From Flavobacteriales bacterium (lineage in GTDB: Bacteria; Bacteroidota; Bacteroidia; Flavobacteriales_D; CAJJDF01), in assembly GCA_965658995.1 (NCBI GenBank), contig CBFHVI010000001.1, positions 1,599-65,598 on the forward strand: a stretch of DNA of 64,000 nt, given 5' to 3'. Below, one piece after another: positions 41,017 to 64,000 of this stretch. The translations under genes were made by a program, and so were the position numbers. The notes under the pieces were generated by a model. The model saw only the letters and a program-made list of their open reading frames with translations, did no database searches and was not told where the DNA came from. The first letter of the stretch is position 1; each line of letters opens with the position of its first letter.

Positions 41017-41943
41017 TTATACAAATGTTTTTATATGTCGATCGGCCTTCGAAGGATGAATATCGGCAATAGAAATTAAAATTCCAGTTTCTTCTACTCC
41101 ACCAAAATCTGGATTCTCTGCAGTTCCAAAGGTTTTCATCGAATCCGAGAGGTTCATGTAGGAATTAATAAGAGGTGGTATTCTTTCCCCTTTTTCTTTT
41201 AATACTTCCCCTAATATTTTGTGTCCCTCTTTGTAAGTAAGCCCTGTTAACTTGGCAAGAAATTCTTTAGATTCATGAATAATAGGCAAAGGAGAAATAG
41301 GTGTTACCAATTGATCCTTATCAGGAAAATAATAGTTCATAAATGAAAGTAACATATCTCGTGCTTCTTTGTTGTACTCTTTGTACATCGTTACCTTTCC
41401 AAAAAAATAATTCACCTCTGGGTTTAAAACTATGAGAGCACCCAGTCCGTCCCACAGATTATCGAGGGTAAATAATCCCTTTCTATTTGTGGCAGAAGGT
41501 TGATAGGCGGGCTGGACCCAAGACCTTCCTAATTCTATCGTGGTGGGTAAATAATCAGAAACAAAACGATTGGAAAAGTTGAAATAATGTTTTGTTGAAA
41601 TGTCTATTTTATTCAGATTTCCTCGAAATTTTGGACAGTTAAAAAACCTGTAGCCACCCAAAATCTCCTCGTCTTCAGGGCTCCAAACAATCAGTTGATC
41701 ATAATTGTGCTCGCAAGTATCCAATTCATCAATATCTACTTCTTGCCCTGTACCACCACCAGCTGAACCAAACGATACTTCTCTCAACCTACCAATTTCT
41801 CTCATTACATGAGGGGAATCATGATGATTTATTATATAAATTTCATTATTTCCTTTGTTCGTAGTTCGAATAAATTTGTTTTGGGACAATTCCTTTTTAA
41901 TTAATGACCTTTCTATTGGAGCTATAATGTAATCTAAATTCAT
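41017..41943 (-). CDS. GNAT-family N-acyl amino acid synthase (OlsB/GlsB-like)
   Basis: Motifs EIGRLREVSF, DIDELD, GGYR, IELGRSWV and IPPLINSYMNLS. Confidence 0.75.
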   Translation of the reverse strand: MNLDYIIAPIERSLIKKELSQNKFIRTTNKGNNEIYIINHHDSPHVMREIGRLREVSFGSAGGGTGQEVDIDELDTCEHNYDQLIVWSPEDEEILGGYRFFNCPKFRGNLNKIDISTKHYFNFSNRFVSDYLPTTIELGRSWVQPAYQPSATNRKGLFTLDNLWDGLGALIVLNPEVNYFFGKVTMYKEYNKEARDMLLSFMNYYFPDKDQLVTPISPLPIIHESKEFLAKLTGLTYKEGHKILGEVLKEKGERIPPLINSYMNLSDSMKTFGTAENPDFGGVEETGILISIADIHPSKADRHIKTFV

Positions 41944-41965
41944 GTTCTGAATGTAATGGATTTTC

Positions 41966-42778
41966 TTATTTTTTCGGCAAATTGTATGCTATATTTTTAA
42001 TATGGGCCGCAATTTCTTTGTCAGATTTTGATTCTTCAAAATCGATCACAGAGATGGGCTTTCCAAAGTAAATCGGCAGCACTTTGTTTTTTTGCTTGAA
42101 TAATTCGTCAGCCAAATACAACATTTCAATATTGGATTTTATTCCTATAGCTTCCCTAAGCGCGGACAACCGATAAAAGAAATTTGACAATTCACCGTCT
42201 ATAAATACAGGGACAATTTTTTTATTTGATTTTTTGGCCCGAGTTACAAAAGTTTTTTTCCATTCCAAATCACTCACTACACCTTTTTTCTTTCGCGAAA
42301 CAAGTCCAGCAGGAAATAAAAACACAGCTTTGTCTGACTCAAAAAGTTCATTTACTTTTTGGAGTGATTCTTTTGCATTCTTTCCATGTTTGTCTACCCC
42401 AACAAACAATCCCTTCAAGTTTTCCAGACTCATCAGGAGGTCGTTCACAATAAACATAATATCCTTTCTTATTGGAGCCACTTCTTTCACAATGGCCATT
42501 GCATCCATCCCTCCAAGAGGATGATTAGATACGAAGATTACACCTTCTTCTTTTGGGATGTTCTGGAGGCCATGCGATTCAACAGAAATATTGAATCTTT
42601 TGATAATATCAATGCAAAAATCTACCCCAATTACTTGTTCATTTTCTTCCAAAATTTGATTGATTTCGGATTGATGAAGGATTCGTTTTAAGTAATTAAT
42701 AAGAAAGCGAGGAAGTCTTTTCAAGAGTTTAGGGTTTTTACTTCCTATCAACCTTTCTATATCGATGAATTTTTCCAT
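41966..42778 (-). CDS. PlsC-like acyltransferase (OlsA/GlsA-like)
   Basis: SNHPLGGMD (HX4D-like motif) and FPAGLVSR. Confidence 0.8.
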   Translation of the reverse strand: MEKFIDIERLIGSKNPKLLKRLPRFLINYLKRILHQSEINQILEENEQVIGVDFCIDIIKRFNISVESHGLQNIPKEEGVIFVSNHPLGGMDAMAIVKEVAPIRKDIMFIVNDLLMSLENLKGLFVGVDKHGKNAKESLQKVNELFESDKAVFLFPAGLVSRKKKGVVSDLEWKKTFVTRAKKSNKKIVPVFIDGELSNFFYRLSALREAIGIKSNIEMLYLADELFKQKNKVLPIYFGKPISVIDFEESKSDKEIAAHIKNIAYNLPKK

Positions 42779-43938: not shown

Positions 43939-46900
43939 ATGAAACTGAAAATTCTATCAGCATTAATTATTATTATTCTCAGTCTGCAAGGACTATCCTC
44001 TCACTTTGCAGGAGGAAACATTTATTACGACTGTCTGGGGAATAACCAGTATAGAATTTGGGCAGAAATCACTTTAGATTGTGGTGGAGCTTCAAACCCT
44101 ACTTCATTTCCTATTACATCCACCAACACATGTGGCTTATCAAATCCAACTATTTCTCTATCTCTAATCTCATCACAAACCAGAAACGTTTCTCAAGTAT
44201 GTTTTAAGGATAGTCTTCTTACGAGTTGTATCAATTCAAGTAATACTCTTCAGGGAAGAAGAAGGTATTTGTATTCTGCTGTTGTTACACTTCCTCCTTG
44301 TAACAACTGGACTTTTGGATGGTCTTCTTGTTGTAGAAATGGTGGTTTAGGTGGTGTGGTAAATTTGACAACAGCAGGAAATATATATTTAGAAACCAAA
44401 ATGTTTAGTGCCAACGATTCTTGTAATAATTCTGTGAGATACACAGGTGTACAAAACCCGTATGTTTGTATCAACCAACCTGCTAGTTACAACTTTGGTG
44501 CTGTTGATCCTGATGGTGATAGTTTGGCTTATGTGTTGATTCCTGCCATGACAGGTGCAGCAACTTTTTCACCTTATAATACACCTTACTCTGGTCAGAA
44601 TCCTATTAGTGCAATTGTATTAGATAGTACTACTGGAACAATCACTTTTACTCCCAATACGCTTGGTTCTTTTGTTGTGGTAGTTCAAGTAACGGAATAC
44701 GACACCGCAGGAAATATCTTAGCAGTTACGATGAGAGATATCCAGATTGTTGTGTACAACTGCGCAGGAAATATTCCGCCAGACCCTACTCCATCCTTTC
44801 TTTATAATGTAGTAGGTCAGGGAACTATTGCTGGACCAAAAAAACTAGAAGTCTGCGAGGGAGATTCATTTTGTGTAGATTTTCAAGTGTATGATTCAAA
44901 TGCTTTGGACACACTTACTCTTTGGAGTACAAACATTGCTTCTGTTTTGCCAGGTGCAACGTTGAGCTACACAGGGACAAACCCAATTACAGGAACAATA
45001 TGTTGGAGTGTACCGTCTAACTCTCCTGCCATAAACCCTGTTAGTTTATCGGTAGATGACGGATATTGTCCTATACCAGCAAGAGCCTCATTTAGTGTTA
45101 TAATAGAAGTGATAAAAAGTACGTATGTTTCCCCAGACGTGACCATCTGTTTGGGAGATAGTACTCAACTCACAGCTCAAGGAGGAAGTACGTTTACTTG
45201 GGCATCCATTTCTGGTCCGCCACTCGCGGTAGGAACAAATTTCGATTGTGATACTTGTCAACCAGCGTTTGCAAAACCAACTGCTACAACTATTTACGAA
45301 GTAACGAGTGATTTATCGGGAGGTTGTAAAAACAAGGATACAGTTCAGGTAACGGTCGCTTCCAATTTTAATTATAACTTGACACAAACCGGTACTGCCA
45401 GTTGTAAACTTGACCCTATTAGTTTTAATATTACTCCACTAGTTCCCGATACTTATACTTACTTATGGACACCAGCGAGTATGCTGAACGCAAATAACAT
45501 TCCAAACCCTGTACTAAACCCGACTCAATCTGGGTTATTCAACTATATAATTACTGCCACAAATTCACAAGGATGTGTGAAATATGATACGGTTAGTGTA
45601 TTTGTATCAAACGGAGTAAAACCAGATGTAAAAGCATTTACAGACAAGGATACTGTCATCTGTAACGACATTGCAAATCTAGCCGCATGGGTAGATACCG
45701 CAGCTTCAGTGAGTAATCTTCGAGACGATTTTGATAATGCACTGAGCCCATTTGCCTTCGTGAGCAATATTTCGGGAGGAGCAATTGGATCTGGATGTGG
45801 AGCTAATTCTCCGCCTAGTTCATTAAACTTTAATGCCGGTGGAAACCGAGAACTTCGAACATCTTCTATACAAGTTGGAAATTGTACACAAATCACATAC
45901 TCCATAAGATTAGGAAATGCTGCTTCTGGTTTTTCTTGTGAAAATGTGGAAAGTACAGACCCTGTATATTTTCAATATTCAATAAACAACGGTACCACAT
46001 GGGTGAATCTAAGGACTCACTCTTACCTTGGATGGTTGGTATCTACTGGATGGCAAACATTTACATCACCAATGCCTGCAGGAGCAACAAGCATAATGTT
46101 TAGATGGCATCAGCCAGTACATGGTGGAGTTGGACAGGACAACTGGGCACTTGATGATATCCAAATCGATTGTAGTTCGCTAAATAACTATGCCTACAGC
46201 TGGACTCCTACTCCTACTCTAGGAACCCCAAATTCGCCTTTTACAACTGCTCAACCAAATGTCGGAACTAATTATCAATTGGTTGTTACTGATACAACTG
46301 GAGGATGTTCCGATACCGCGTTTGTTTATTTAGAAGCTTCAACCGACTACCCGATGATTGATGTATCTATTGATACAAATAATGGATGTAAACCTGTAAT
46401 TGTTACATTTACCAACAATACAGATCCAACAAGAATTGGAACAATCGAATGGGATTTTGGTGACGGAACCACTAGTACGACATTAATAAATCCAATGGTT
46501 CATACCTACACTGAACCGGGAACTTATTCGGTATATGTAAAAATTACATCACCCAATGGATGTGTCTCTGACACGACATATACCAACCTAGTAACTGTGT
46601 ATGACATTCCCGTTGCGTTTTTTAATGCGAATCCACAGCCCACAAATATTTCTAATCCAAACATTAACTTCTTTGATCTATCAAGTAATTTTGTGAATCA
46701 ATGGGATTGGGCCTTTGGTATCAACCTACCCGGATTTCCTACAAACTCAAATTTACAGAATCCTTCAGTGAAATATCCCGACTTAAATAGCGGAGTATAT
46801 CCTGTGACTTTGATCGTTGGATCGGCCAATGGATGTTACGACACTGTATCAAGAAACATTATCATTGATGGACTGTATACTCTCTATCTTCCGAGTTCGT

Positions 46901-47178
46901 TTACTCCAAATGATGACGGACTTAACGATGTATTTGGTCCAAGTGGTGAAAAAATAGACCCAGACAATTACAAATTTATGATTTTCAATAGATGGGGAGA
47001 AACAATATTTAGTTCATCTAGCGTATCGGATAAATGGAACGGAAGACTGAACAATAGTGGAGACCTATTACCCGAAGGAACCTATGTGTGGCGAATAATG
47101 GCAAAAGATGGTAATACAGGTGAGGAGCATGAATACTTTGGACATGTGGTACTCCTGCAAAAACTAAAACTAGAATAA
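43939..47178 (+). CDS. T9SS type B cargo protein (gliding motility-associated CTD) with PKD domains and a reelin-like domain
   Basis: Signal peptide followed by SHFAGGNIYY; PKD motif WDFGDG; CTD YLPSSFTPNDDGLNDVF...IFNRWGE...WNG...GTYVW. Confidence 0.88.
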   Translation: MKLKILSALIIIILSLQGLSSHFAGGNIYYDCLGNNQYRIWAEITLDCGGASNPTSFPITSTNTCGLSNPTISLSLISSQTRNVSQVCFKDSLLTSCINSSNTLQGRRRYLYSAVVTLPPCNNWTFGWSSCCRNGGLGGVVNLTTAGNIYLETKMFSANDSCNNSVRYTGVQNPYVCINQPASYNFGAVDPDGDSLAYVLIPAMTGAATFSPYNTPYSGQNPISAIVLDSTTGTITFTPNTLGSFVVVVQVTEYDTAGNILAVTMRDIQIVVYNCAGNIPPDPTPSFLYNVVGQGTIAGPKKLEVCEGDSFCVDFQVYDSNALDTLTLWSTNIASVLPGATLSYTGTNPITGTICWSVPSNSPAINPVSLSVDDGYCPIPARASFSVIIEVIKSTYVSPDVTICLGDSTQLTAQGGSTFTWASISGPPLAVGTNFDCDTCQPAFAKPTATTIYEVTSDLSGGCKNKDTVQVTVASNFNYNLTQTGTASCKLDPISFNITPLVPDTYTYLWTPASMLNANNIPNPVLNPTQSGLFNYIITATNSQGCVKYDTVSVFVSNGVKPDVKAFTDKDTVICNDIANLAAWVDTAASVSNLRDDFDNALSPFAFVSNISGGAIGSGCGANSPPSSLNFNAGGNRELRTSSIQVGNCTQITYSIRLGNAASGFSCENVESTDPVYFQYSINNGTTWVNLRTHSYLGWLVSTGWQTFTSPMPAGATSIMFRWHQPVHGGVGQDNWALDDIQIDCSSLNNYAYSWTPTPTLGTPNSPFTTAQPNVGTNYQLVVTDTTGGCSDTAFVYLEASTDYPMIDVSIDTNNGCKPVIVTFTNNTDPTRIGTIEWDFGDGTTSTTLINPMVHTYTEPGTYSVYVKITSPNGCVSDTTYTNLVTVYDIPVAFFNANPQPTNISNPNINFFDLSSNFVNQWDWAFGINLPGFPTNSNLQNPSVKYPDLNSGVYPVTLIVGSANGCYDTVSRNIIIDGLYTLYLPSSFTPNDDGLNDVFGPSGEKIDPDNYKFMIFNRWGETIFSSSSVSDKWNGRLNNSGDLLPEGTYVWRIMAKDGNTGEEHEYFGHVVLLQKLKLE

Positions 47179-47323: not shown

Positions 47324-47995
47324 TTGGAAAACCTGAAAATACATATTAAAGTAAATGAAGATCTTTATTTGAAAGATCCTGAATCAACTAAGCTCGGGAA
47401 AAAGATAATTTCTTATAGTATCTTACTCATTGATGAATTAGGATTTGAATCTTTTACTTTTAAAAAGCTTGCCACCAAAATTAATTCTACAGAAAGTTCA
47501 ATATACCGATACTTTGAAAGTAAATATTCGTTGTTGCTCTATCTCTATTGCTGGTATTGGAGCTGGATTGAATACAAACTAGTTTTTGGAACAATCAACA
47601 CAAACTCCGCTTTGATTAGATTAAAGAAAACAATCGAAATAATTAGCTCTCCCATTGAAATTGACAACGATATTTCCCACATTAACGAAGTTATCTTGAA
47701 GAAAATCATCATTTCTGAATCAATTAAAGTGACTCACACCAAGATTGTAGACGAAGAAAATGAAAAAGGACACTTTAAAGTGTATAAACGAATCATTCGA
47801 AGAATTGCTGAGATTATTCAAGAAATCAATCCTGATTATCCCTATCCGCATATGTTGGTGTTCTCCATGATTGATGGTGTAATCGAGCAATCTTTCTTCT
47901 CTTCTCATCTTTCAGGGGTGACTGAGATGAAGGATGAACATGATACTTGCTTGATTGACTTCTACACCGATTTAATATTAAAAGCAATACAATAA
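47324..47995 (+). CDS. TetR/AcrR family transcriptional regulator
   Basis: HTH motif GFESFTFKKLA...ESSIYRYFESK; TTG start. Confidence 0.88.
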   Translation: MENLKIHIKVNEDLYLKDPESTKLGKKIISYSILLIDELGFESFTFKKLATKINSTESSIYRYFESKYSLLLYLYCWYWSWIEYKLVFGTINTNSALIRLKKTIEIISSPIEIDNDISHINEVILKKIIISESIKVTHTKIVDEENEKGHFKVYKRIIRRIAEIIQEINPDYPYPHMLVFSMIDGVIEQSFFSSHLSGVTEMKDEHDTCLIDFYTDLILKAIQ

Positions 47996-48004
47996 AATAC
48001 TCGA

Positions 48005-49414
48005 TTACTGAGCTAAGACTCCCAACGTGTGTTTAAGTTTGGCGTGTGCTTTTTGATTGCTAGCAATGCTTTTGGCGAAATCAATTTGAGAATAGATATA
48101 ATTTTTTTCTCTCGTATTGATCATAAAAATAGAGCTTTCACCTAGGTCAAATAATCTCAATTCTGCATCGAGTAGTTTTTCATAATTCAATTGATTATTC
48201 AAAAATAATTTGGCTTGCGAGAAACTCGTACCAGAGGTATTATAAGCTGCAATTATCTTGTACTTTACTTGTTGATTTTTCTCCGCAAATCCCGCTTGCA
48301 TATCTCTGATTTCTAATTTATCTAGTTTTACTTGTCCTCTTTCTTTTCTAATAAACAATGGAAAACTTACCTCTGCGCTCCATTTATAATTATTTGCGTT
48401 GTATGTTTCAAAGGTAGAAGCAAAAGTATTTTGAGCTAAAGCATTGTACTTCAAATTAACAGTAGGTTTTAGGCTTTCTTTGCTCAATCGCAAATCAATT
48501 TGTTTTGATTCTATTTTATACAAATAGTTGACCAAATCCGGATGGGTTGAAATAAGTGAATCTGCCATAGAGAATAACGAATCATCAGCAGGAACAAGCA
48601 ATTCGCTTGTCAATTCTGGTGGAGATACATCTTCGGACAGTTCTAGAGGAACAATTCCCTCTTGCCACAAAAATACCTGAAGTAGTTCTGTATTATTTTT
48701 GTAAGAAAGTGTTGCCTCTTGCAGAGATATTTGTCTATTCTGTACCACAATATGATATTCCAAAGTATCAATCATAGGTTTATTTCCCATTACCGCCTCT
48801 TGTTTAATTCCTATGAACCTTGACAGGGCATTTGAGTAGGCATTTCGATATATTTCCATCTCGTGAAAGGATTTAAACCATTCCCAATAAACTGCGCTAG
48901 ACTCATACAGCAAGTCGTTTAGTATAATTATTCTTTGCGCATCTGTGCTATTTTTGTAGATCTTAGCTTTTTTTAATTCGGCCCTTCGTTCGTCAATAAA
49001 CAACCCTTTTCCGAGTGTAATTCCAACCCCCGCATTCCAAAGACCATCGGCAGGCGTGTTGAGTTCTGGGTTAAGAAACGTACCTTCGTTCAATTCATAT
49101 CCTCCTTCAAGAGTAATTCCGAACCAAGTGGGTATTTTTAATCCTCCTCGATTCTCTGCATAATAGGAATTATTATCAAAATCTTTGTAATTGGCATTGC
49201 CATAGAATTTTGGATCAAAACCACCTCGTGCTTTCATCAGATAAGCTTTTCCTTTTTGGGTAGTTAAATCTGCCTGGATAGCTACTGGATGATTACTTTT
49301 TACAATTCCAATAAACTCCTCGAACCCAAATTCTTGCTTAATTTCTTGAGCGTATAAAAACACTGGAAAAGCAAAAAGGAAAACGACCAATACGGTTCTT
49401 AAACTTTTTGTCAT
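48005..49414 (-). CDS. TolC family outer-membrane protein
   Basis: Signal peptide, NHP...ARGGFDP and AELRLFDLGESS; last gene of the ABC-HlyD operon. Confidence 0.85.
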   Translation of the reverse strand: MTKSLRTVLVVFLFAFPVFLYAQEIKQEFGFEEFIGIVKSNHPVAIQADLTTQKGKAYLMKARGGFDPKFYGNANYKDFDNNSYYAENRGGLKIPTWFGITLEGGYELNEGTFLNPELNTPADGLWNAGVGITLGKGLFIDERRAELKKAKIYKNSTDAQRIIILNDLLYESSAVYWEWFKSFHEMEIYRNAYSNALSRFIGIKQEAVMGNKPMIDTLEYHIVVQNRQISLQEATLSYKNNTELLQVFLWQEGIVPLELSEDVSPPELTSELLVPADDSLFSMADSLISTHPDLVNYLYKIESKQIDLRLSKESLKPTVNLKYNALAQNTFASTFETYNANNYKWSAEVSFPLFIRKERGQVKLDKLEIRDMQAGFAEKNQQVKYKIIAAYNTSGTSFSQAKLFLNNQLNYEKLLDAELRLFDLGESSIFMINTREKNYIYSQIDFAKSIASNQKAHAKLKHTLGVLAQ

Positions 49415-50766
49415 TTTTTCTTCTCGTTAAGGTTTGTTTGGGTTTTCTTACTATAAAAGTCAGGTGGGAATCCGTTGACATTTCGCCAAAGTTCATACCA
49501 AACGGGAACATCATTCAATAATATCATGTTGTTCGTTCCACCCCCATACATCAAGGCATTTGGCCAAGAGATATCAGTAGAATCTGGCTTTACTAATATT
49601 CTATATTTTCCATTTTCACCCAAAAACATATCCATGGCATACACATGTCCACTGTAAGTTCCATAACTCGCATTGGGCCATCCTGCAAATACAACTGCCG
49701 GCCAGCCATCAAATTGAATTTGAACTTTCTGTCCTACTTTCAGCAAGGGTAAATCAATAGGTGCCACAAAAAGCTCTACCGCCAGTTGATATTGTGTTGG
49801 CATTATTTTCACCAAGGGATCACCTTCTTTTATCATCTCTCCTATTCCTGCGTAAATCAAGCTAGAAATATACCCATCTTGTGGCGCTTTTACGTAGTAC
49901 AAATCATTCCTAAATGAATAATTAGATAATTCATTCATGAGTTTGTTTACTGTTCCCTCCGAATCGAATTGAGTAGATAAGGTAGAATAAATGTCTGAGT
50001 TGATTTTAGCGATATCCGAATCAAATTTCACCTTGATATTCGATAACTCAACCTGAGCATTTATTATTTCATTCTGGCTTGCCAACCATTTATTTTGCGC
50101 TTCAATTTTGTAGGCAAATGCTTTTTGCTCCTTTACTCTTTTGTTCTCCAAATCTGTCAATGACTTTAATCCATCTTTGTACAAACTGTCTGTCCGATTA
50201 AACTGACTAATAGCGGCCGCATAATTTGCCAAAGACGCTTGGTAATTATTTGAGTCATTTTGAGCTTTAAGTTTCGCTTGCAAAAGTTTGTTTTTTGCTT
50301 GTTGAATTTTCAATCTTCTTAACTCTTCCAACGCTACTCGCTGACTTTGCAACGCCATCACTTTACTCTTATAAGATTCTACAGAAGAAGACTTTAAATT
50401 CATTTGGTTCTTCGTTCTGGACATTAAACTTGTATCAAAATATCTGTCTTTTATCTCGGACAAGAAAGCAATTGTATCCCCTTTCTTAACGAAATCACCT
50501 TCTTGCACGAACCACTTTTCAATTTTTCCTGGGATCACGGAGTTGATTGTTTGAGGTCTTTGCGAAGGTTTAAGAGTAGTTACGTTTCCATTTGTTCGGA
50601 TATTTTGAGTCCATGGTAAAAAAAGTAGGACTATCGAGACAATAGAAATAACATACAAAAAGCGAATAAATGCCTTTTTGGAAGTTCTATTCTCCACTTT
50701 ATTGAGGGTATTAAATTTGCTTTCCTCTACCCTATTTGAAATATCTATTTTTGAAATATTTAGCAT
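49411..50766 (-). CDS. HlyD-family periplasmic adaptor
   Basis: N-terminal transmembrane helix, lipoyl half motifs VQEGDFVKKGD and APQDG, long coiled coil, C-terminal WYELWRNVNGFPP. Confidence 0.85.
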   Translation of the reverse strand: MLNISKIDISNRVEESKFNTLNKVENRTSKKAFIRFLYVISIVSIVLLFLPWTQNIRTNGNVTTLKPSQRPQTINSVIPGKIEKWFVQEGDFVKKGDTIAFLSEIKDRYFDTSLMSRTKNQMNLKSSSVESYKSKVMALQSQRVALEELRRLKIQQAKNKLLQAKLKAQNDSNNYQASLANYAAAISQFNRTDSLYKDGLKSLTDLENKRVKEQKAFAYKIEAQNKWLASQNEIINAQVELSNIKVKFDSDIAKINSDIYSTLSTQFDSEGTVNKLMNELSNYSFRNDLYYVKAPQDGYISSLIYAGIGEMIKEGDPLVKIMPTQYQLAVELFVAPIDLPLLKVGQKVQIQFDGWPAVVFAGWPNASYGTYSGHVYAMDMFLGENGKYRILVKPDSTDISWPNALMYGGGTNNMILLNDVPVWYELWRNVNGFPPDFYSKKTQTNLNEKKK

Positions 50767-50778
50767 AATTCTGTTCTC

Positions 50779-52488
50779 TTATAAATAATCCTTTACAGTA
50801 TTGTAACTTCCAATTTTTTCGATTCTTCCCTCTTTCAAAACAATGATTTTATCTAGTTTTTGACATAAAGCTTCATTAGATGATGCCAATATAAGGGTCC
50901 AGCAACGATCTTTGTGTGTTAAGAATTTTAATATTCTATTTCTTTCGTCTGGAGAAATAGCACCAAAAGCATCTTTTATTAGAAGAAGTCTTGGTTTGTC
51001 AGCAATAGCTCTAGCCAATAATATTTTATCAATTATTCCCTTCGAAAACTTCTGTCCTCTGGAGTCAATCAAGGTATCGTATCCTTTCGGCAATCTTTTG
51101 ATGTGATCTTCTAGTCCAATATTCTTAATGGCCCACTTTATGTTTTCAAAAGTTGCTTTCTCTCTGCCCATTTTGATATTATCAAAGATAGTTCCGTCAA
51201 ACAATAACTCCTCTCTTAAACAATCTCCAATAACGTTTCTTAACGTACTTAATTTTAAATTTCCTTGAGGCAAACCATTGTAGGCAATATATCCAGAAGC
51301 AGGAACATACAAGGCAGATATTAGGTACATCAAAGTTGATTTACCAGAATCATTGTCTCCATACAAAAGAACTTTTTCGTTCGGATTTATCACAACATTT
51401 ATGTCTGATAAAACTGATAAATCTTCTTGTGTGTAGCCAAAACTTACCTTGCTTAATTCCACTTTGAGTCCATTGTCGTCCATGTTATCCAAAATACACA
51501 GGCCTTCGTGATTCTCTAGTTCTAAGTCTGTAACTTGACCAATTTTTTCCAGAGAGGTAAGAACGTCATAAATTGTTTCGAGACTAACTATCAATTTTTC
51601 TACTGAATTAATTACCAAAAGAATAATTATCTCCGCTGCAACAAATTGACCAATATTCATTTGCTGTTCCATTACAAGCATACTCCCAATAATAAGCAAA
51701 CCAGATGCTACAATAGCCTTAAAAACAACCAGTAGTGAATATTGCTTTACTAGAATATTGAAATGGCTTTCCCGGGCGTCAATGTATTTATTGGTTCGCT
51801 TGTCTGTAACTTCTAGTGGCAACGAAGTTTTTCCCGCCAATTTGAAACTAATGTTGGTCCGAGCCATTTCTTGCAACCAATGGGCTACGTTGTATTTGTT
51901 TTTTGATTCTACCAAACTAGTTTCTAAACCAACTTTGGCAGTATATTGAAAAATGGCCCATACCAAAATAACCAAAATCAAACTAAAAATGATGAAAAAT
52001 GGGTGATAAAGAGATAATAATATAAGTCCAAATACTACTTGAATGGAGGCAGAAGAAAAATCAATCAATATTTTCGAAATTCCTTTTTGAACCGAAATAA
52101 TATCAAAAAAACGATTCATTAGCTCAGGAGCATAATGATTGTACAACGCTGACATTTTAATATTTGGAATTCTAAACGCAAACTCAAATGCAGCACGGGT
52201 AAATAATTTTTGCTGAAGAATCTCCGTTATTTTTAATTGACTAATTTGAAGAATACCCGAAAAAATAATTCCCAGAATAACAAAAGTTACAAGCACTATC
52301 CACGCTGTACTTACTGCACCACCTTGGATGAGATTTATGATTGCTTGAATACCAATAGGCAAAGATAAATTTACCAAACCATTGAAAATAGCATACAAAT
52401 AAATATACCTAATCTCCTGTTTATCGTTCCTCAATAGCTTCAAAAACCTTCGTAAAGGCGTAAGACTATTTTCTTTTTTTTCTTCCAT
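50779..52488 (-). CDS. T1SS-type ABC transporter (TMD-NBD fusion) with degenerate ATPase motifs
   Basis: TMD with IGQFVAAEI. Walker A GDNDSGKST is present, but the signature reads FSKGI and Walker B reads LLLIKD. Confidence 0.85.
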   Translation of the reverse strand: MEEKKENSLTPLRRFLKLLRNDKQEIRYIYLYAIFNGLVNLSLPIGIQAIINLIQGGAVSTAWIVLVTFVILGIIFSGILQISQLKITEILQQKLFTRAAFEFAFRIPNIKMSALYNHYAPELMNRFFDIISVQKGISKILIDFSSASIQVVFGLILLSLYHPFFIIFSLILVILVWAIFQYTAKVGLETSLVESKNKYNVAHWLQEMARTNISFKLAGKTSLPLEVTDKRTNKYIDARESHFNILVKQYSLLVVFKAIVASGLLIIGSMLVMEQQMNIGQFVAAEIIILLVINSVEKLIVSLETIYDVLTSLEKIGQVTDLELENHEGLCILDNMDDNGLKVELSKVSFGYTQEDLSVLSDINVVINPNEKVLLYGDNDSGKSTLMYLISALYVPASGYIAYNGLPQGNLKLSTLRNVIGDCLREELLFDGTIFDNIKMGREKATFENIKWAIKNIGLEDHIKRLPKGYDTLIDSRGQKFSKGIIDKILLARAIADKPRLLLIKDAFGAISPDERNRILKFLTHKDRCWTLILASSNEALCQKLDKIIVLKEGRIEKIGSYNTVKDYL

Positions 52489-59651: not shown

Positions 59652-62600
59652 CTATTTAACCACAGTCAACTTTTTAGAAGTTGAGAAGTAATCATTAGAA
59701 ACAGAGATTGTGTAGATTCCTTCTGCCAGGTTCGTAACATCCAGTTCCAATAAATTATTGGAAGCGGACAACTCGCTTGATTCAATTAATTTTCCAACTG
59801 CATCAAAAACTCTCACTGTTACGTTTTCATTTGCATTCATTTTGGCTATATCAATTGAAACAACAGAATTAGCAGGATTTGGATACACATTAATATCTGA
59901 AGCGTTCACCACATATTCATCCAAACTTACGCTCATTATTTGAGTACAAGTCGAGGTATCCTTACATCCATCAACAGTAGTGATTTCAACTGCATATTCT
60001 CCATTTCTCACCGGTGTAAAAGTTTGACCGGTTTCTCCTAATAAGAAAGAATATTCATTTTCACAATCCATCCACTTATAAGTTACACCCGTGTTGGGAG
60101 CGGTAAGTGTAATTCCTGATACAGTCACAGGAAGAGCTGTTACTGAGTTAATAGTTAAAATAGTGGTGATAGTTTTGACACAACCAAAAGCATTTGTTGT
60201 TAAATCAGTGTAAGTTCCACTCACAAAGTATGTATTGCCAGTTTCTGGCACGGTATAACTTTCACAAGCAGAAACCGTTCGAGTTTCTGAACTATTCGCT
60301 TTGATGGTTAGATTAATTGTCATTAAACTGTCACATCCTTTTGACGTTGGTATGGTATCATACCTCGTTCCAGATGTAGTCCACACTTTTCCACTTGGTG
60401 AGGTGTAACTTCCACATGCTGTTACTGAGATCGATTTAGCTGCATTGTAATTCACAGTTAGCAAAGTAGTAATAATACTGTCACATCCTTGTGTAGTTGG
60501 GATCGTGTCTGTGAATGACCCTGAATAATTCATTGTTCTTCCACCAGGTAGCGTGTAAGACTCACAAGCCGTTACAAAATTGTTAAATGTTTTAGTGTAA
60601 TTAACTGTTAAATCAAGGGTAATTACACTATCACAACCTACCGAGTTCGGAATGATGTGAGTAGCTGTTGTATTTGAGGCAGTATAAGTAACCCCGTCCA
60701 ACCAAGTCATTGAATCACAGACAACATATGTATCGGTATATGTCGTTGAATTTTTCACTGTAAGGTTCAGTGTGAAAATGGTATCACAAATCCCAGCAAC
60801 ATTACTTTTTATGGTATCAATTGCGGAATTATTAGACGCAGTATACGTAATGCCATCCATCCACATCATTGAATCACAAACGACATACGAGTCAATTGCC
60901 GAAACATAACAGGGAAGAATAACATTCACTGTATAATCTTCAAAAGAACCGTAAGAACCAGTGTAACAAGGGCTATTAGGTCCTAAATTATTGTCAGTAC
61001 CTCCGATTCTCATAATGTGAGGACCTACAGGTGCGGAGGAAGGCACGGCAAAGGTTCCAGATAATACGGTTGGGTTTGATGAAGCTGATAATCCGAAATA
61101 TACTTGTTCTGAGGAATCAAACACTAAGTCATCATTCCAGTCAATCCAAATTTTAGTTCCATAGGTATATCCTGTTGAATATTGGATAGAGAATGCTTGT
61201 GCTGAAGCACCTTGGATTATATCAGTAGACAAAGAATCATAATCCCCATAATATCCTGGCTCCGAACCTGTTGTATTGTTAATTGTTCCGATAGTAACAT
61301 TGGTAATACCTGATCCATCAGTTGAAGTTGGAGCAGGAACACAATACCATGTGTAGAAAGAAATAGGACCTACCCAAGCACTTGAGTCTGTACCTCCACA
61401 ATAAGATCTTACGTAATACTCGTAATTTGTTTTAGCGGTAAGACCAGTTAACGATGTCGACAAAGAACTAGAAACGACATTCGTCCCTGTCACCAATGGA
61501 TCAAAACCTGCAGTATCGTAACGTACGATGTAACTTGTTGGTGTTCCAAACAATGGTGCTGACCACGAAAGAGTTGCTGTTGTACTAGTATTTACAGTTG
61601 CACCAGCCATAGTTGGTGAGAAACAAGCAGGAGATTCAATTACTGAGATATCATCTAAACAAATATCTCCTTGATAAGAACCATTACTTATCGCAACAAA
61701 CCTAAGTTTTATTACACCAGAATACGAAGATAGATCAATATATTGTTGGTTCCATGCCGAAGCTTGAGAAGCTTGCTGAGCACCCGTAATAGTTAATTCA
61801 TTTGTCCAAGTTGTTCCGTTGAAAACCTGCACACTCAGAGAACCTATTTGGCTACCAAACATATGATAATAAAACTCTAAAAAAGGTGTGGTCAAACTTG
61901 TTAGATCCACTGAAGGAGAATTCAAAATTGCTGTATCACCAACACCTGCTCCAGAAGCTTCAGTGTAGAAAAATTTAGAACCAGAGTTTGCAGAAAGAGC
62001 ACCGGTAAATGAAGATGGAGTTCCGCTAGAGCTTATATTCCAATCAAACACAGAGCCTGTATTTGTAGAGGACCAGCAGTTTGAAATAGCAGAACCACTT
62101 GTAGTGTTTGGATGCCCTTCTACTCCATCTGACCAAGGCCCTAAATTCGTGTCATTACACAAAGTGGTGAAAGAGTATGGTCCAGCCCAAGGACTTGAGT
62201 CAGAAGCGGTACAAAGAGATGACACATAATATTGATAGGTCGTAAATGAATTCAAACCTGACAAAGGTACAGTATCGTTGGTAACAATCACAGAAGTTCC
62301 AGTTCCTTGAACAAACCCAGCAACACCGTATTCGATTCTAGAATTTGCTGATCCTGCATTGTTGCTCCAGTTAATCATCGCTGAGGTTGATAATACGTTA
62401 AACGCATTCAAAGCAGTTGGATCTGGACAATTTGGAATCGCTTCCACAATCACATTATCAACGAAAAAATCAGGCCCATAATCTGAAACCCCTACAAATC
62501 TTACTTGAATTGTTTTGTTGGTGTAGGTGGCTGAATCTAAAATTATTGTTTCAGTTACAAAAGAACCTGGGCTCGTATTTGTTGCGCCATCATTAGAAGA

Positions 62601-64000
62601 AGGATTTGTCATTCCCCACACCGTGTTCCAAGTTCCACCCACTTCTCTTACTTGTACAGAAACGGAATCATCGTAGTAGGTTGAAGTATTTCTAGACCAA
62701 TCAAATTTTAATCTTGCATTGGCACTTACAATTATTGGTTCAGACATCATATGAAGTGTACCTGAAGAAATACTCCAGAAGTTAGCTCTTGCGATACCTC
62801 CCGTGTAAGCAATCCAATTATTAGAACCACCTGTTAAATCCCAACAGTTAGGCGGCCAAGACGAAAAGTCTTGTAAGTACGGTAAAGTGGCAGCACTACA
62901 CAAAGTAGTAAAACTAAATGGACCATTATATCCACTCGAATCACTGGTACCGCAATACGCCTGAACATAAAAATCATAGGTTGTATTTGCACCTAATCCC
63001 GAAAGCGCAGCAGTTAAAGAGCTTGAAGTGCCAATTGTTCCTGTACCTTGAGTAAATCCAGTAACACCATACTCAAATTTAAAACTAGTGGAGGTTGGAT
63101 GAGACCAAGCAACATTTGCACCTGAAGATGTTATCCCAGAAAAAGCAATTCCAAGTGGAAGATTACATGAAGGTGCAGCTGAATAAGCAATACTTAGGTT
63201 AGGAACTGCTGATCTTTGATATGTTGCAGAAGGAGGTGATGAAGGATTAGGATTTGTGAAATCATTTCTGTATATAATACTTCTAGTACTCGAGGTAGTT
63301 CTGCAATAAAAATCATCAGAGCTAGAACCATAACCTGCAGCATTTTCATCCACCGCAATGATAATATTATCTATACCATTCCATACAAAAGGAGTTGTAA
63401 GAGCTATCTTTACCAAATTACGGGAACCGGAAACAACAGTTACGGTGGCGGTACCCGAAAAAACTTGACTCAAATTAGTCAAGGTTTCCCAGTCAGTGGA
63501 TGAAGAGAAACTACTTTTTGTTGTATGACCCATGTACACAGTCCAATTATCAGAACTATTCAGAGTCGAATTGGTATATTCAAAAGTTAAAGTATCCATA
63601 GACTTCGCTCCAATAATGCCAGAGGCATTTAATTCAGAGGCAGGAAAAATACTTTGGGAATAAGAATACCCGTAATAAGGTTCAATTGGTAATGTTTGAG
63701 TCGTTGACGAACCTGGGGTTCCAATAACAACGTTTCCTTGTTGTGGTGTGTAGTCCAATGTCATGTTTGGAACATAAGAACGCTGATAAGTTGCGCTAGG
63801 CGGAGAAGCTGGATCTGGGTTTGTAAAATCATTTCGATACACCAAACTCCTGGTTCCCGCAGTTGATCTACAATAAAAGTCATCTGAACTGCTTCCGTAA
63901 CCTGAAGCATTTTCATCAAAAGCAAATATTAAATTACTAGTTCCATCCCAAAGGAATGGTGTGGAAAATGTTATTACAACGGTATTGGTCCCACCTGTAG
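59652..64000 (-). CDS. large T9SS type A cargo protein (tandem N-terminal domains, FN3, MAM, GEVED, GCDS repeats); 5' end lies outside the window
   Basis: The frame stays open to the right edge. FN3 motifs (GLGANTTYDFYVQAYC), MAM (FYYHMFG...GDICLDDI), GEVED-like (WIDWNDD...GSFEDY) and CTD VYPNPA...GIY...KKLTVVK. Confidence 0.88.
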   Translation of the reverse strand, partial: TGGTNTVVITFSTPFLWDGTSNLIFAFDENASGYGSSSDDFYCRSTAGTRSLVYRNDFTNPDPASPPSATYQRSYVPNMTLDYTPQQGNVVIGTPGSSTTQTLPIEPYYGYSYSQSIFPASELNASGIIGAKSMDTLTFEYTNSTLNSSDNWTVYMGHTTKSSFSSSTDWETLTNLSQVFSGTATVTVVSGSRNLVKIALTTPFVWNGIDNIIIAVDENAAGYGSSSDDFYCRTTSSTRSIIYRNDFTNPNPSSPPSATYQRSAVPNLSIAYSAAPSCNLPLGIAFSGITSSGANVAWSHPTSTSFKFEYGVTGFTQGTGTIGTSSSLTAALSGLGANTTYDFYVQAYCGTSDSSGYNGPFSFTTLCSAATLPYLQDFSSWPPNCWDLTGGSNNWIAYTGGIARANFWSISSGTLHMMSEPIIVSANARLKFDWSRNTSTYYDDSVSVQVREVGGTWNTVWGMTNPSSNDGATNTSPGSFVTETIILDSATYTNKTIQVRFVGVSDYGPDFFVDNVIVEAIPNCPDPTALNAFNVLSTSAMINWSNNAGSANSRIEYGVAGFVQGTGTSVIVTNDTVPLSGLNSFTTYQYYVSSLCTASDSSPWAGPYSFTTLCNDTNLGPWSDGVEGHPNTTSGSAISNCWSSTNTGSVFDWNISSSGTPSSFTGALSANSGSKFFYTEASGAGVGDTAILNSPSVDLTSLTTPFLEFYYHMFGSQIGSLSVQVFNGTTWTNELTITGAQQASQASAWNQQYIDLSSYSGVIKLRFVAISNGSYQGDICLDDISVIESPACFSPTMAGATVNTSTTATLSWSAPLFGTPTSYIVRYDTAGFDPLVTGTNVVSSSLSTSLTGLTAKTNYEYYVRSYCGGTDSSAWVGPISFYTWYCVPAPTSTDGSGITNVTIGTINNTTGSEPGYYGDYDSLSTDIIQGASAQAFSIQYSTGYTYGTKIWIDWNDDLVFDSSEQVYFGLSASSNPTVLSGTFAVPSSAPVGPHIMRIGGTDNNLGPNSPCYTGSYGSFEDYTVNVILPCYVSAIDSYVVCDSMMWMDGITYTASNNSAIDTIKSNVAGICDTIFTLNLTVKNSTTYTDTYVVCDSMTWLDGVTYTASNTTATHIIPNSVGCDSVITLDLTVNYTKTFNNFVTACESYTLPGGRTMNYSGSFTDTIPTTQGCDSIITTLLTVNYNAAKSISVTACGSYTSPSGKVWTTSGTRYDTIPTSKGCDSLMTINLTIKANSSETRTVSACESYTVPETGNTYFVSGTYTDLTTNAFGCVKTITTILTINSVTALPVTVSGITLTAPNTGVTYKWMDCENEYSFLLGETGQTFTPVRNGEYAVEITTVDGCKDTSTCTQIMSVSLDEYVVNASDINVYPNPANSVVSIDIAKMNANENVTVRVFDAVGKLIESSELSASNNLLELDVTNLAEGIYTISVSNDYFSTSKKLTVVK
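60147..60887 (-). repeat. five tandem ~50-aa C(D/E/G)S...GCDS..T..LT(V/I) repeats within the T9SS protein
   Basis: Visible in the translation; each unit has two Cys. Confidence 0.8.

Follow-up and report, generated by a model that had tools for sequence, protein, structure and literature searches.

The module encoded by residues 594–745 of a 1079-residue protein in the window (the whole 64,000-nucleotide stretch analyzed here, from a marine Flavobacteriales bacterium) is a genuine homologue of reelin subrepeat B, and is nearer to subrepeat B than to subrepeat A. Our best explanation, to which we assign a joint probability of roughly 0.55, is that this homologue is inserted as a loop in an Ig-like repeat of a predicted T9SS surface protein, where it likely forms a knob stabilized by calcium and a disulfide that binds a surface polymer, most likely a glycan, and that it represents an old, mobile prokaryotic surface domain which has been inherited vertically in this genus.

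The original prediction proposed a reelin-like module from a series of short motifs, all of which (GGAIGSGCG, SLNFNAGGNRELRT, YSIRLG, SCE, VYFQYSINNGTTW, MFRWHQP and QDNWALDDIQI) are present in frame, with the proposed boundaries corresponding exactly to residues 594–745 of the host open reading frame (Table 1). The reelin-like identity is borne out by profile, PDB sequence and structure searches. Against Pfam PF21471 (Reelin subrepeat B) the module scores 85.6 bits (E 3.1e-24, cut-off 27) in an alignment covering profile positions 1–126 of 127, and since a match of this significance extends over nearly the full profile, the likeness in motifs is not due to chance. This score is far above anything obtained for MAM, cleaved-adhesin or CBM domains: PF21471 is the only Pfam family for the module at E<=1, with no match on the module to PF07675 (cleaved adhesin), PF00629 (MAM) or CBM families at that threshold, and the same Pfam search did detect MAM in another protein of the window. 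Precomputed Pfam matches carry the label for 14 of the 14 homologues checked, and the genome holds one copy of the module, at 136 bits vs. 31 bits for the next best domain.

A search of PDB sequences (177,635 sequences) returned eight rows, five of them reelin (E 2.4e-31 to 1.9e-21) and the other three with E above 1, and when a 20-row bacterial profile was compared with the PDB, reelin was recovered at E 4e-83 to 2e-44 with the next row at 0.06. The best single PDB matches of the module are reelin repeats 8B, 3B and 1B at 61–73 bits. The affinity to subrepeat B can be seen both from the module, which scores 43–73 bits against B stretches of reelin and 14 bits or less against A stretches, and from the bacterial profile, which gives 86 and 97 bits for B stretches and 39 and 51 bits for A stretches.

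An AlphaFold2 model of the module with its flanks, built from an alignment of 90 rows (pLDDT 84.4), predicts a jelly roll that resembles reelin more than it does other jelly rolls. Foldseek searches with this model place reelin at all of ranks 1–8 (E 1.5e-12 to 2.1e-10), with MAM next at 2.1e-6. In a VIA search of 48,161 chains, reelin is matched with Z 19.2–20.9 and an rmsd of 1.9–2.2 Å over 144–152 residues, and the runners-up are cleaved adhesin K1 (Z 12.9), MAM domains (11–12) and CBMs (10–12), such that the folds ranking next behind reelin are those of adhesion and carbohydrate-binding domains. Look-alikes by Atlas features are cleaved-adhesin-type clusters at 0.90–0.94, none of them named reelin. 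At none of the three levels of sequence, profile and structure are the best matches generic CBM, MAM or cleaved-adhesin domains.

Table 1. Features of the host gene and its reelin-type module (positions in the window; residues of the host protein, with module numbering in brackets where given).
Feature	Position	Strand	Basis
Host ORF, 1079-aa type-B T9SS cargo protein (P0001)	43939..47178	+	ORF; CHU_C and TIGR04131 matches; orthologues
Likely Sec signal peptide, residues 1–21	43939..44001	+	By eye: basic start, hydrophobic run
N-terminal domain, residues about 22–275, without Pfam family	44002..44763	+	Pfam search
Two uninterrupted Cys-bridged Ig-like repeats, residues 393–474 and 475–557	45115..45609	+	Register C..W..Y..C
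First half of host Ig-like repeat, residues 558–593, with Cys575	45610..45717	+	Repeat register
Reelin subrepeat-B-type jelly-roll module, residues 594–745 (P0002)	45718..46173	+	Pfam, PDB, structure
Asp599 (D6), aligned with reelin Ca2+ residues E1456/E2175	45733..45735	+	Alignment, hand-counted numbering
Cys620 and Cys667 (C27, C74), predicted disulfide equivalent to C1475-C1522 of reelin repeat 3B	45796..45939	+	Gap-free alignment between cysteines
Acidic loop E668-x-x-E671-x-x-D674 (75, 78, 81); with D734 a candidate second metal/ligand site	45940..45960	+	Conservation
Asp-box (BNR) hairpin YSINNGTTW, residues 680–688	45976..46002	+	Sequence
Last strand D734-N-W-A-L-D739; D739 (D146) aligned with reelin Ca2+ ligands D1593/D2310	46138..46155	+	Alignment
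Second half of host Ig-like repeat, residues 746–803, with Cys790	46174..46347	+	Repeat profile, 37.8 bits
Two PKD domains, residues about 805–980	46351..46878	+	PKD_4 in two stretches, best 805–882; limits of second domain by eye
Type-B T9SS C-terminal sorting domain, residues 984–1072	46888..47154	+	CHU_C, TIGR04131

The assignment of the host as a T9SS protein, also part of the original prediction, agrees with its type-B tail, which matches CHU_C (61 bits, Pfam cut-off 27) and TIGR04131 (47.7 bits, cut-off 35), and with the T9SS genes found above cut-offs in the genome (SprA, GldM, 7 PorP/SprF and 21 CHU_C matches). The genome thus encodes a T9SS and PorP/SprF shuttles, as is expected for type-B cargo. 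No PorP/SprF gene lies beside the host gene, and 0 of the 7 PorP/SprF matches are on its contig. Together with the signal peptide recognized by eye, the tail suggests that the host protein is secreted and displayed at the surface. Among the Pfam matches of the 1079-residue protein there is no EGF or Reeler family, and Ig_7 matches its Ig-like repeats weakly, below the cut-off; the protein carries one module only, without the A-EGF-B units and Reeler domain of a complete reelin, in line with the single EGF-less module that had been proposed. About 250 residues long, the N-terminal domain contains a CCRN motif, and two further proteins encoded in the genome have related N-termini. A second T9SS cargo gene (window 59652–63998, minus strand, open at the window edge) encodes fn3, MAM and GEVED domains and a type-A tail, and a 686-residue secreted metalloprotease-like protein (L002:1210–3270, minus strand) combines PKD with a MAM/cleaved-adhesin-like domain that reaches 23.5 bits on PF21471.

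An assembly chimera is ruled out as the source of this architecture, as one contig of an independent DNA run crosses both module joints (X7 record 18; also X5 record 13). At least half of the gene's words are contained in 14 of the 24 sequencing runs listed, all 14 of which are labelled marine, seawater or salt marsh. RNA runs also yield low-depth contigs on the host gene, module included, and such RNA-library contigs do not show transcription.

The module was originally placed between Ig/PKD-like repeats, and its insertion in the repeat region holds, but it sits inside one Ig-like repeat (558–593 / 746–803) rather than between repeats. The two repeats before the module follow the register C..W..Y..C, and the flanks before and after the module complete one further repeat. 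With an Ig-repeat profile of 79 positions, built from 19 uninterrupted repeats of relative loci, the downstream flank fits profile positions 30–78 in 106 of 122 domains (0/122 when shuffled) and the upstream flank fits positions 6–26 in 48 of 122 (1/122 when shuffled), and the query's own flanks score 37.8 bits downstream (positions 30–74) and only 0.7 bits upstream. Neither of the host cysteines, C575 and C790, varies across 90 aligned rows, these being the query and 89 of 133 domains picked for an Ig-like downstream flank. Judged by this register, the module is a loop insert in the host Ig-like repeat, and since its two ends lie together, both loop insertion and a side-on position are possible. 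In other Bacteroidota proteins (L085, L066, L082, L072) the module also appears to be inserted in a second kind of beta-sandwich repeat, with the flanks assessed by eye.

The residues that stabilize subrepeat B in reelin are largely retained across prokaryotic copies. In a set of 398 prokaryote-type domains reduced to 288 by a 70% identity filter, both calcium-ligand positions (the D6 and D146 equivalents) are kept in 249 of the 288 non-redundant copies and the cysteine pair (C27, C74) in 248. In reelin, the counterparts of the two calcium positions are E1456/E2175 and D1593/D2310 (calcium-site residues in Table S1 of PMC6908669), and that of the cysteine pair is the C1475-C1522 bond (SS2); the same paper treats the calcium and disulfide sites of reelin as structural. 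On this alignment we predict that the module binds calcium and forms the B-type disulfide. The Asp-box of the module, S88-I-N-N-G-T-T-W95, also fits the reelin motif S/T-x-D/N-x-G-x-x-W (PMC4882317).

A further set of residues distinguishes the prokaryotic copies. Of the 288, 245 carry an acidic triad at module positions 75, 81 and 141, among them 17 of 22 cysteine-free copies. Outside this set the triad occurs in 35 of 85 copies of the tandem type, in 3 of 27 non-canonical B copies, in 2 of 53 A copies and in none of the 63 B copies of animal reelin. These counts depend on a gap-prone loop alignment, and the absence from animal B copies is due mainly to position 75; in reelin repeat 1B, the equivalents of positions 78, 81 and 141 are retained. 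The strand order and topology of the model imply that E75, D/E78, E/D81 and D141, together with R44 and Q132, should cluster at the end opposite the host domain, and we consider this prokaryote-type acidic cluster a candidate second metal or ligand site. In the alignment of prokaryotic copies there is no clear conserved row of outward aromatics as in many CBMs; aromatics are conserved at positions 37 and 101 and in the W112-equivalent column, with surface exposure inferable from topology only.

In our best explanation the host protein would leave the cytoplasm by Sec export, after which its type-B tail would take it through the T9SS with a PorP/SprF shuttle encoded elsewhere (type-B tails, PorP/SprF shuttles and the concept of orphan cargo are described in PMC12618676), and it would be displayed on the cell surface as a short Ig/PKD stalk. 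The module would project sideways from this stalk, braced by calcium and disulfide, with its far tip binding a surface polymer, and the acidic cluster would suit a second calcium bridging to the ligand. An adhesin or glycan-binding function may be argued by analogy, as the module is also carried by secreted proteases, RTX proteins, FG-GAP proteins and a flagellar rod/hook protein; co-occurrence with proteases, RTX and FG-GAP proteins is company typical of binding modules and was counted in favor of a binding role.

The module could instead bind proteins rather than glycans, acting as a homophilic or host-receptor adhesin. Reelin's known partners, the lipoprotein receptors, are proteins, as are the ligands of MAM domains. 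The order of the closest structures, with reelin ahead of cleaved adhesin K1 and MAM domains, is in keeping with this possibility, as are the binding of reelin to ApoER2/VLDLR (PMC4882317) and the lack of an obvious conserved aromatic platform in the module copies. We nevertheless consider protein binding unlikely, given that most of the ApoER2 contacts map to subrepeat 5A and the 5B/6A junction (Table S1 of PMC6908669), a composite surface that by our reading a lone B module does not have, and that the same tip in cyanobacterial, archaeal and Bacteroidota copies would point to a common small ligand or ion.

Doubtful as well is a structural role, in which the module would be a calcium-stiffened spacer or branch of the stalk without a ligand of its own and the acidic residues would only hold structural calcium. 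The calcium and disulfide sites of reelin are indeed structural (PMC6908669), some proteins carry 12 to 35 tandem copies, and the conservation of the module among orthologues is no higher than that of its flanks; however, a sideways loop insert would not lengthen the stalk, and most bacterial proteins of the family have one to three copies.

No functional link was seen from the neighboring genes (GlsA/GlsB, PPIase, TolC/HlyD/ABC). The glycine-lipid acyltransferase pair GlsA and GlsB (window 41017–42778, minus strand, both above NCBIfam cut-offs) and the PPIase gene precede the host gene in seven of eight close loci, and the remaining locus has no upstream DNA. Downstream, at window 47324–52488, a TetR-like gene (identified by eye, with no NCBIfam match) faces an ABC/HlyD/TolC set on the minus strand, and this block follows the host gene in the closest relatives only.

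The rarity implied by the original prediction was overrated, as the module belongs to a large and mostly prokaryotic family already caught by the Pfam model. The PF21471 cut-off is passed in 31 of 41 genomes, the genome of the window included. Within the genus, 11 of the 12 other genomes have a strong match to the module, against none of 14 control genomes. Of 301 genomes sampled over the phylum, only 6 (again counting the genome of the window) match at E<=1e-10, which indicates that the module is largely a feature of this order. When species genomes were scanned, 194 of 217 candidate stretches were relatives; among the 78 loci listed, most belong to Flavobacteriales families, with others in Chitinophagales, Bacteroidales and Cytophagales and three archaeal records, and the closest named loci are Flavobacteriales MAGs at 69–99% module identity. 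At E<=0.001 the module matches 823 cluster representatives, and the best 150 of these read by architecture as 34 eukaryote-type and 116 prokaryote-type. Twenty were looked up by name, about half of them uninformatively, and the named proteins include those of Salpingoeca infusionum, Sycon ciliatum, two cyanobacteria, an Anaerolineae member (Chloroflexota) and Verrucomicrobiaceae as well as a flagellar rod protein.

Several architectures within the family deserve mention. The protein of the choanoflagellate S. infusionum (P0039, 3549 aa) has about ten reelin-type subrepeats with EGF-like spacers, from which reelin-style repeats appear to predate animals; the protein of the sponge S. ciliatum (P0068) also carries reelin-style repeats. 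P0017 and P0020 (4000–6000 aa) consist almost only of 20–35 EGF-less tandem modules and form one group in the trees, this EGF-less tandem class (up to 35 copies) being made up of unnamed proteins for which the eukaryote label is an assumption. The 3445-residue T9SS type-A cargo P0018, with 12 modules, has the most reelin-like bacterial architecture among the proteins examined, and in P0154, a flagellar rod/hook-type protein of 949 aa, three cysteine-free reelin-type modules lie between Flg end domains.

The bearing of the module on the origin of reelin, or on transfer between eukaryotes and bacteria, was raised in the original prediction and is addressed in part by phylogeny: the query falls among Bacteroidota copies, which are its nearest rows in all trees, but the direction of transfer is not settled by trees that are unrooted and weakly supported. 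These were a 563-row FastTree tree and 70-row IQ-TREE trees, all without an outgroup; 246 of 556 inner branches are under 80 in the 563-row tree and 34 of 67 in the 70-row tree. Among eukaryote-type copies, A and B group apart from each other, and a tree with one eukaryote clade is not rejected, lying within 1 log-likelihood unit of the best tree. None of the five trees compared by the AU test under LG+G4 was rejected.

A recent acquisition of the module from an animal or other eukaryote, as a mimic of reelin, is very improbable. In its favor, the best PDB matches are reelin 8B, 3B and 1B, and the AU test does not reject union of the query with all eukaryotic copies (p-AU 0.245) or with animal reelin B (p-AU 0.095); these forced unions cost 31 and 52 log-likelihood units, respectively, and the nearest rows in all trees remain Bacteroidota. 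The module also occupies one locus across the genus, its GC3 (0.26, compared with 0.26 and 0.29 in the flanks) is native, and the family spans several prokaryotic phyla. A foreign insert in this gene is likewise rejected on the native GC3, the shared locus and the matching divergence, as the module diverges at the same pace as the rest of the gene.

The module shares with reelin subrepeat B (PF21471; PDB 2DDU, 2E26, 3A7Q/5B4X, 6A48, 7LYU) a full-length profile match, a jelly roll at an rmsd of about 2 Å, the Asp-box, the B-type cysteine pair and the calcium-ligand positions. Unlike reelin, it is single, lacks EGF and a subrepeat A partner and interrupts an Ig-like repeat of its T9SS cargo host, and it keeps the acidic residue right after C74 that is absent from animal reelin B copies. 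The gingipain cleaved adhesins (K1, PDB 4ITC; PF07675) are also Bacteroidota T9SS surface domains with the same jelly roll, and have a calcium site similar to that of reelin (PMC4882317), but at 12–16% identity, with no Pfam or PDB sequence match to the module, they branch further away within the superfamily. MAM domains and beta-sandwich CBMs (CBM4, 8, 22, 29) share the galactose-binding-like jelly roll but show no sequence match and an rmsd of about 3 Å; the likeness seen is one of fold. That the module is a generic MAM, cleaved-adhesin or CBM jelly roll with a chance likeness in motifs, as the cleaved-adhesin-type Atlas clusters and the MAM/cleaved-adhesin-like domains of the genome that score weakly on the same profiles might suggest, has a negligible probability and is rejected on the Pfam, profile, Foldseek and Z-score gaps described above (136 vs. 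31 bits; Z 19–21 vs. 12.9). As for the host, its signal peptide, Ig/PKD stalk and CHU_C tail resemble type-B CTD cargo of the SprB class (TIGR04131). The host protein is much shorter than SprB. With no adjacent PorP/SprF, it is an orphan cargo in the sense of PMC12618676.

We found no description of bacterial reelin-type domains in the literature searched, which leaves out most subscription journals, and the reelin structure papers (PMC2716378, PMC4882317, PMC8011033, PMC6908669), in the text available, mention only a likeness in fold to CBMs and cleaved adhesins. The domain itself is already known in that a Pfam model labels it and nearly every close relative has it; the present analysis adds its point of insertion, within an Ig repeat, and a conserved acidic cluster at the predicted tip, which singles out specific residues.

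The family is much wider than reelin, extending over several prokaryotic phyla, a choanoflagellate and a sponge. This breadth makes it testable, with small bacterial proteins of a single domain, where the reelin repeat arose and which ligand its fold first bound. A prokaryotic origin of the family would be the simpler reading because of its wider prokaryotic spread and its bacterial cleaved-adhesin relatives. More tentatively, and short of even odds, the reelin subrepeat may have begun as a mobile prokaryotic surface-binding module with a ligand-bridging second calcium site at its tip. A single transfer would then have brought one copy to the common ancestor of animals and choanoflagellates, where duplication gave rise to A and B, EGF was joined to them, and multiplication produced reelin, in which the tip site was largely lost. 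If this is true, single modules of bacteria such as this one would reveal what the reelin fold bound originally.
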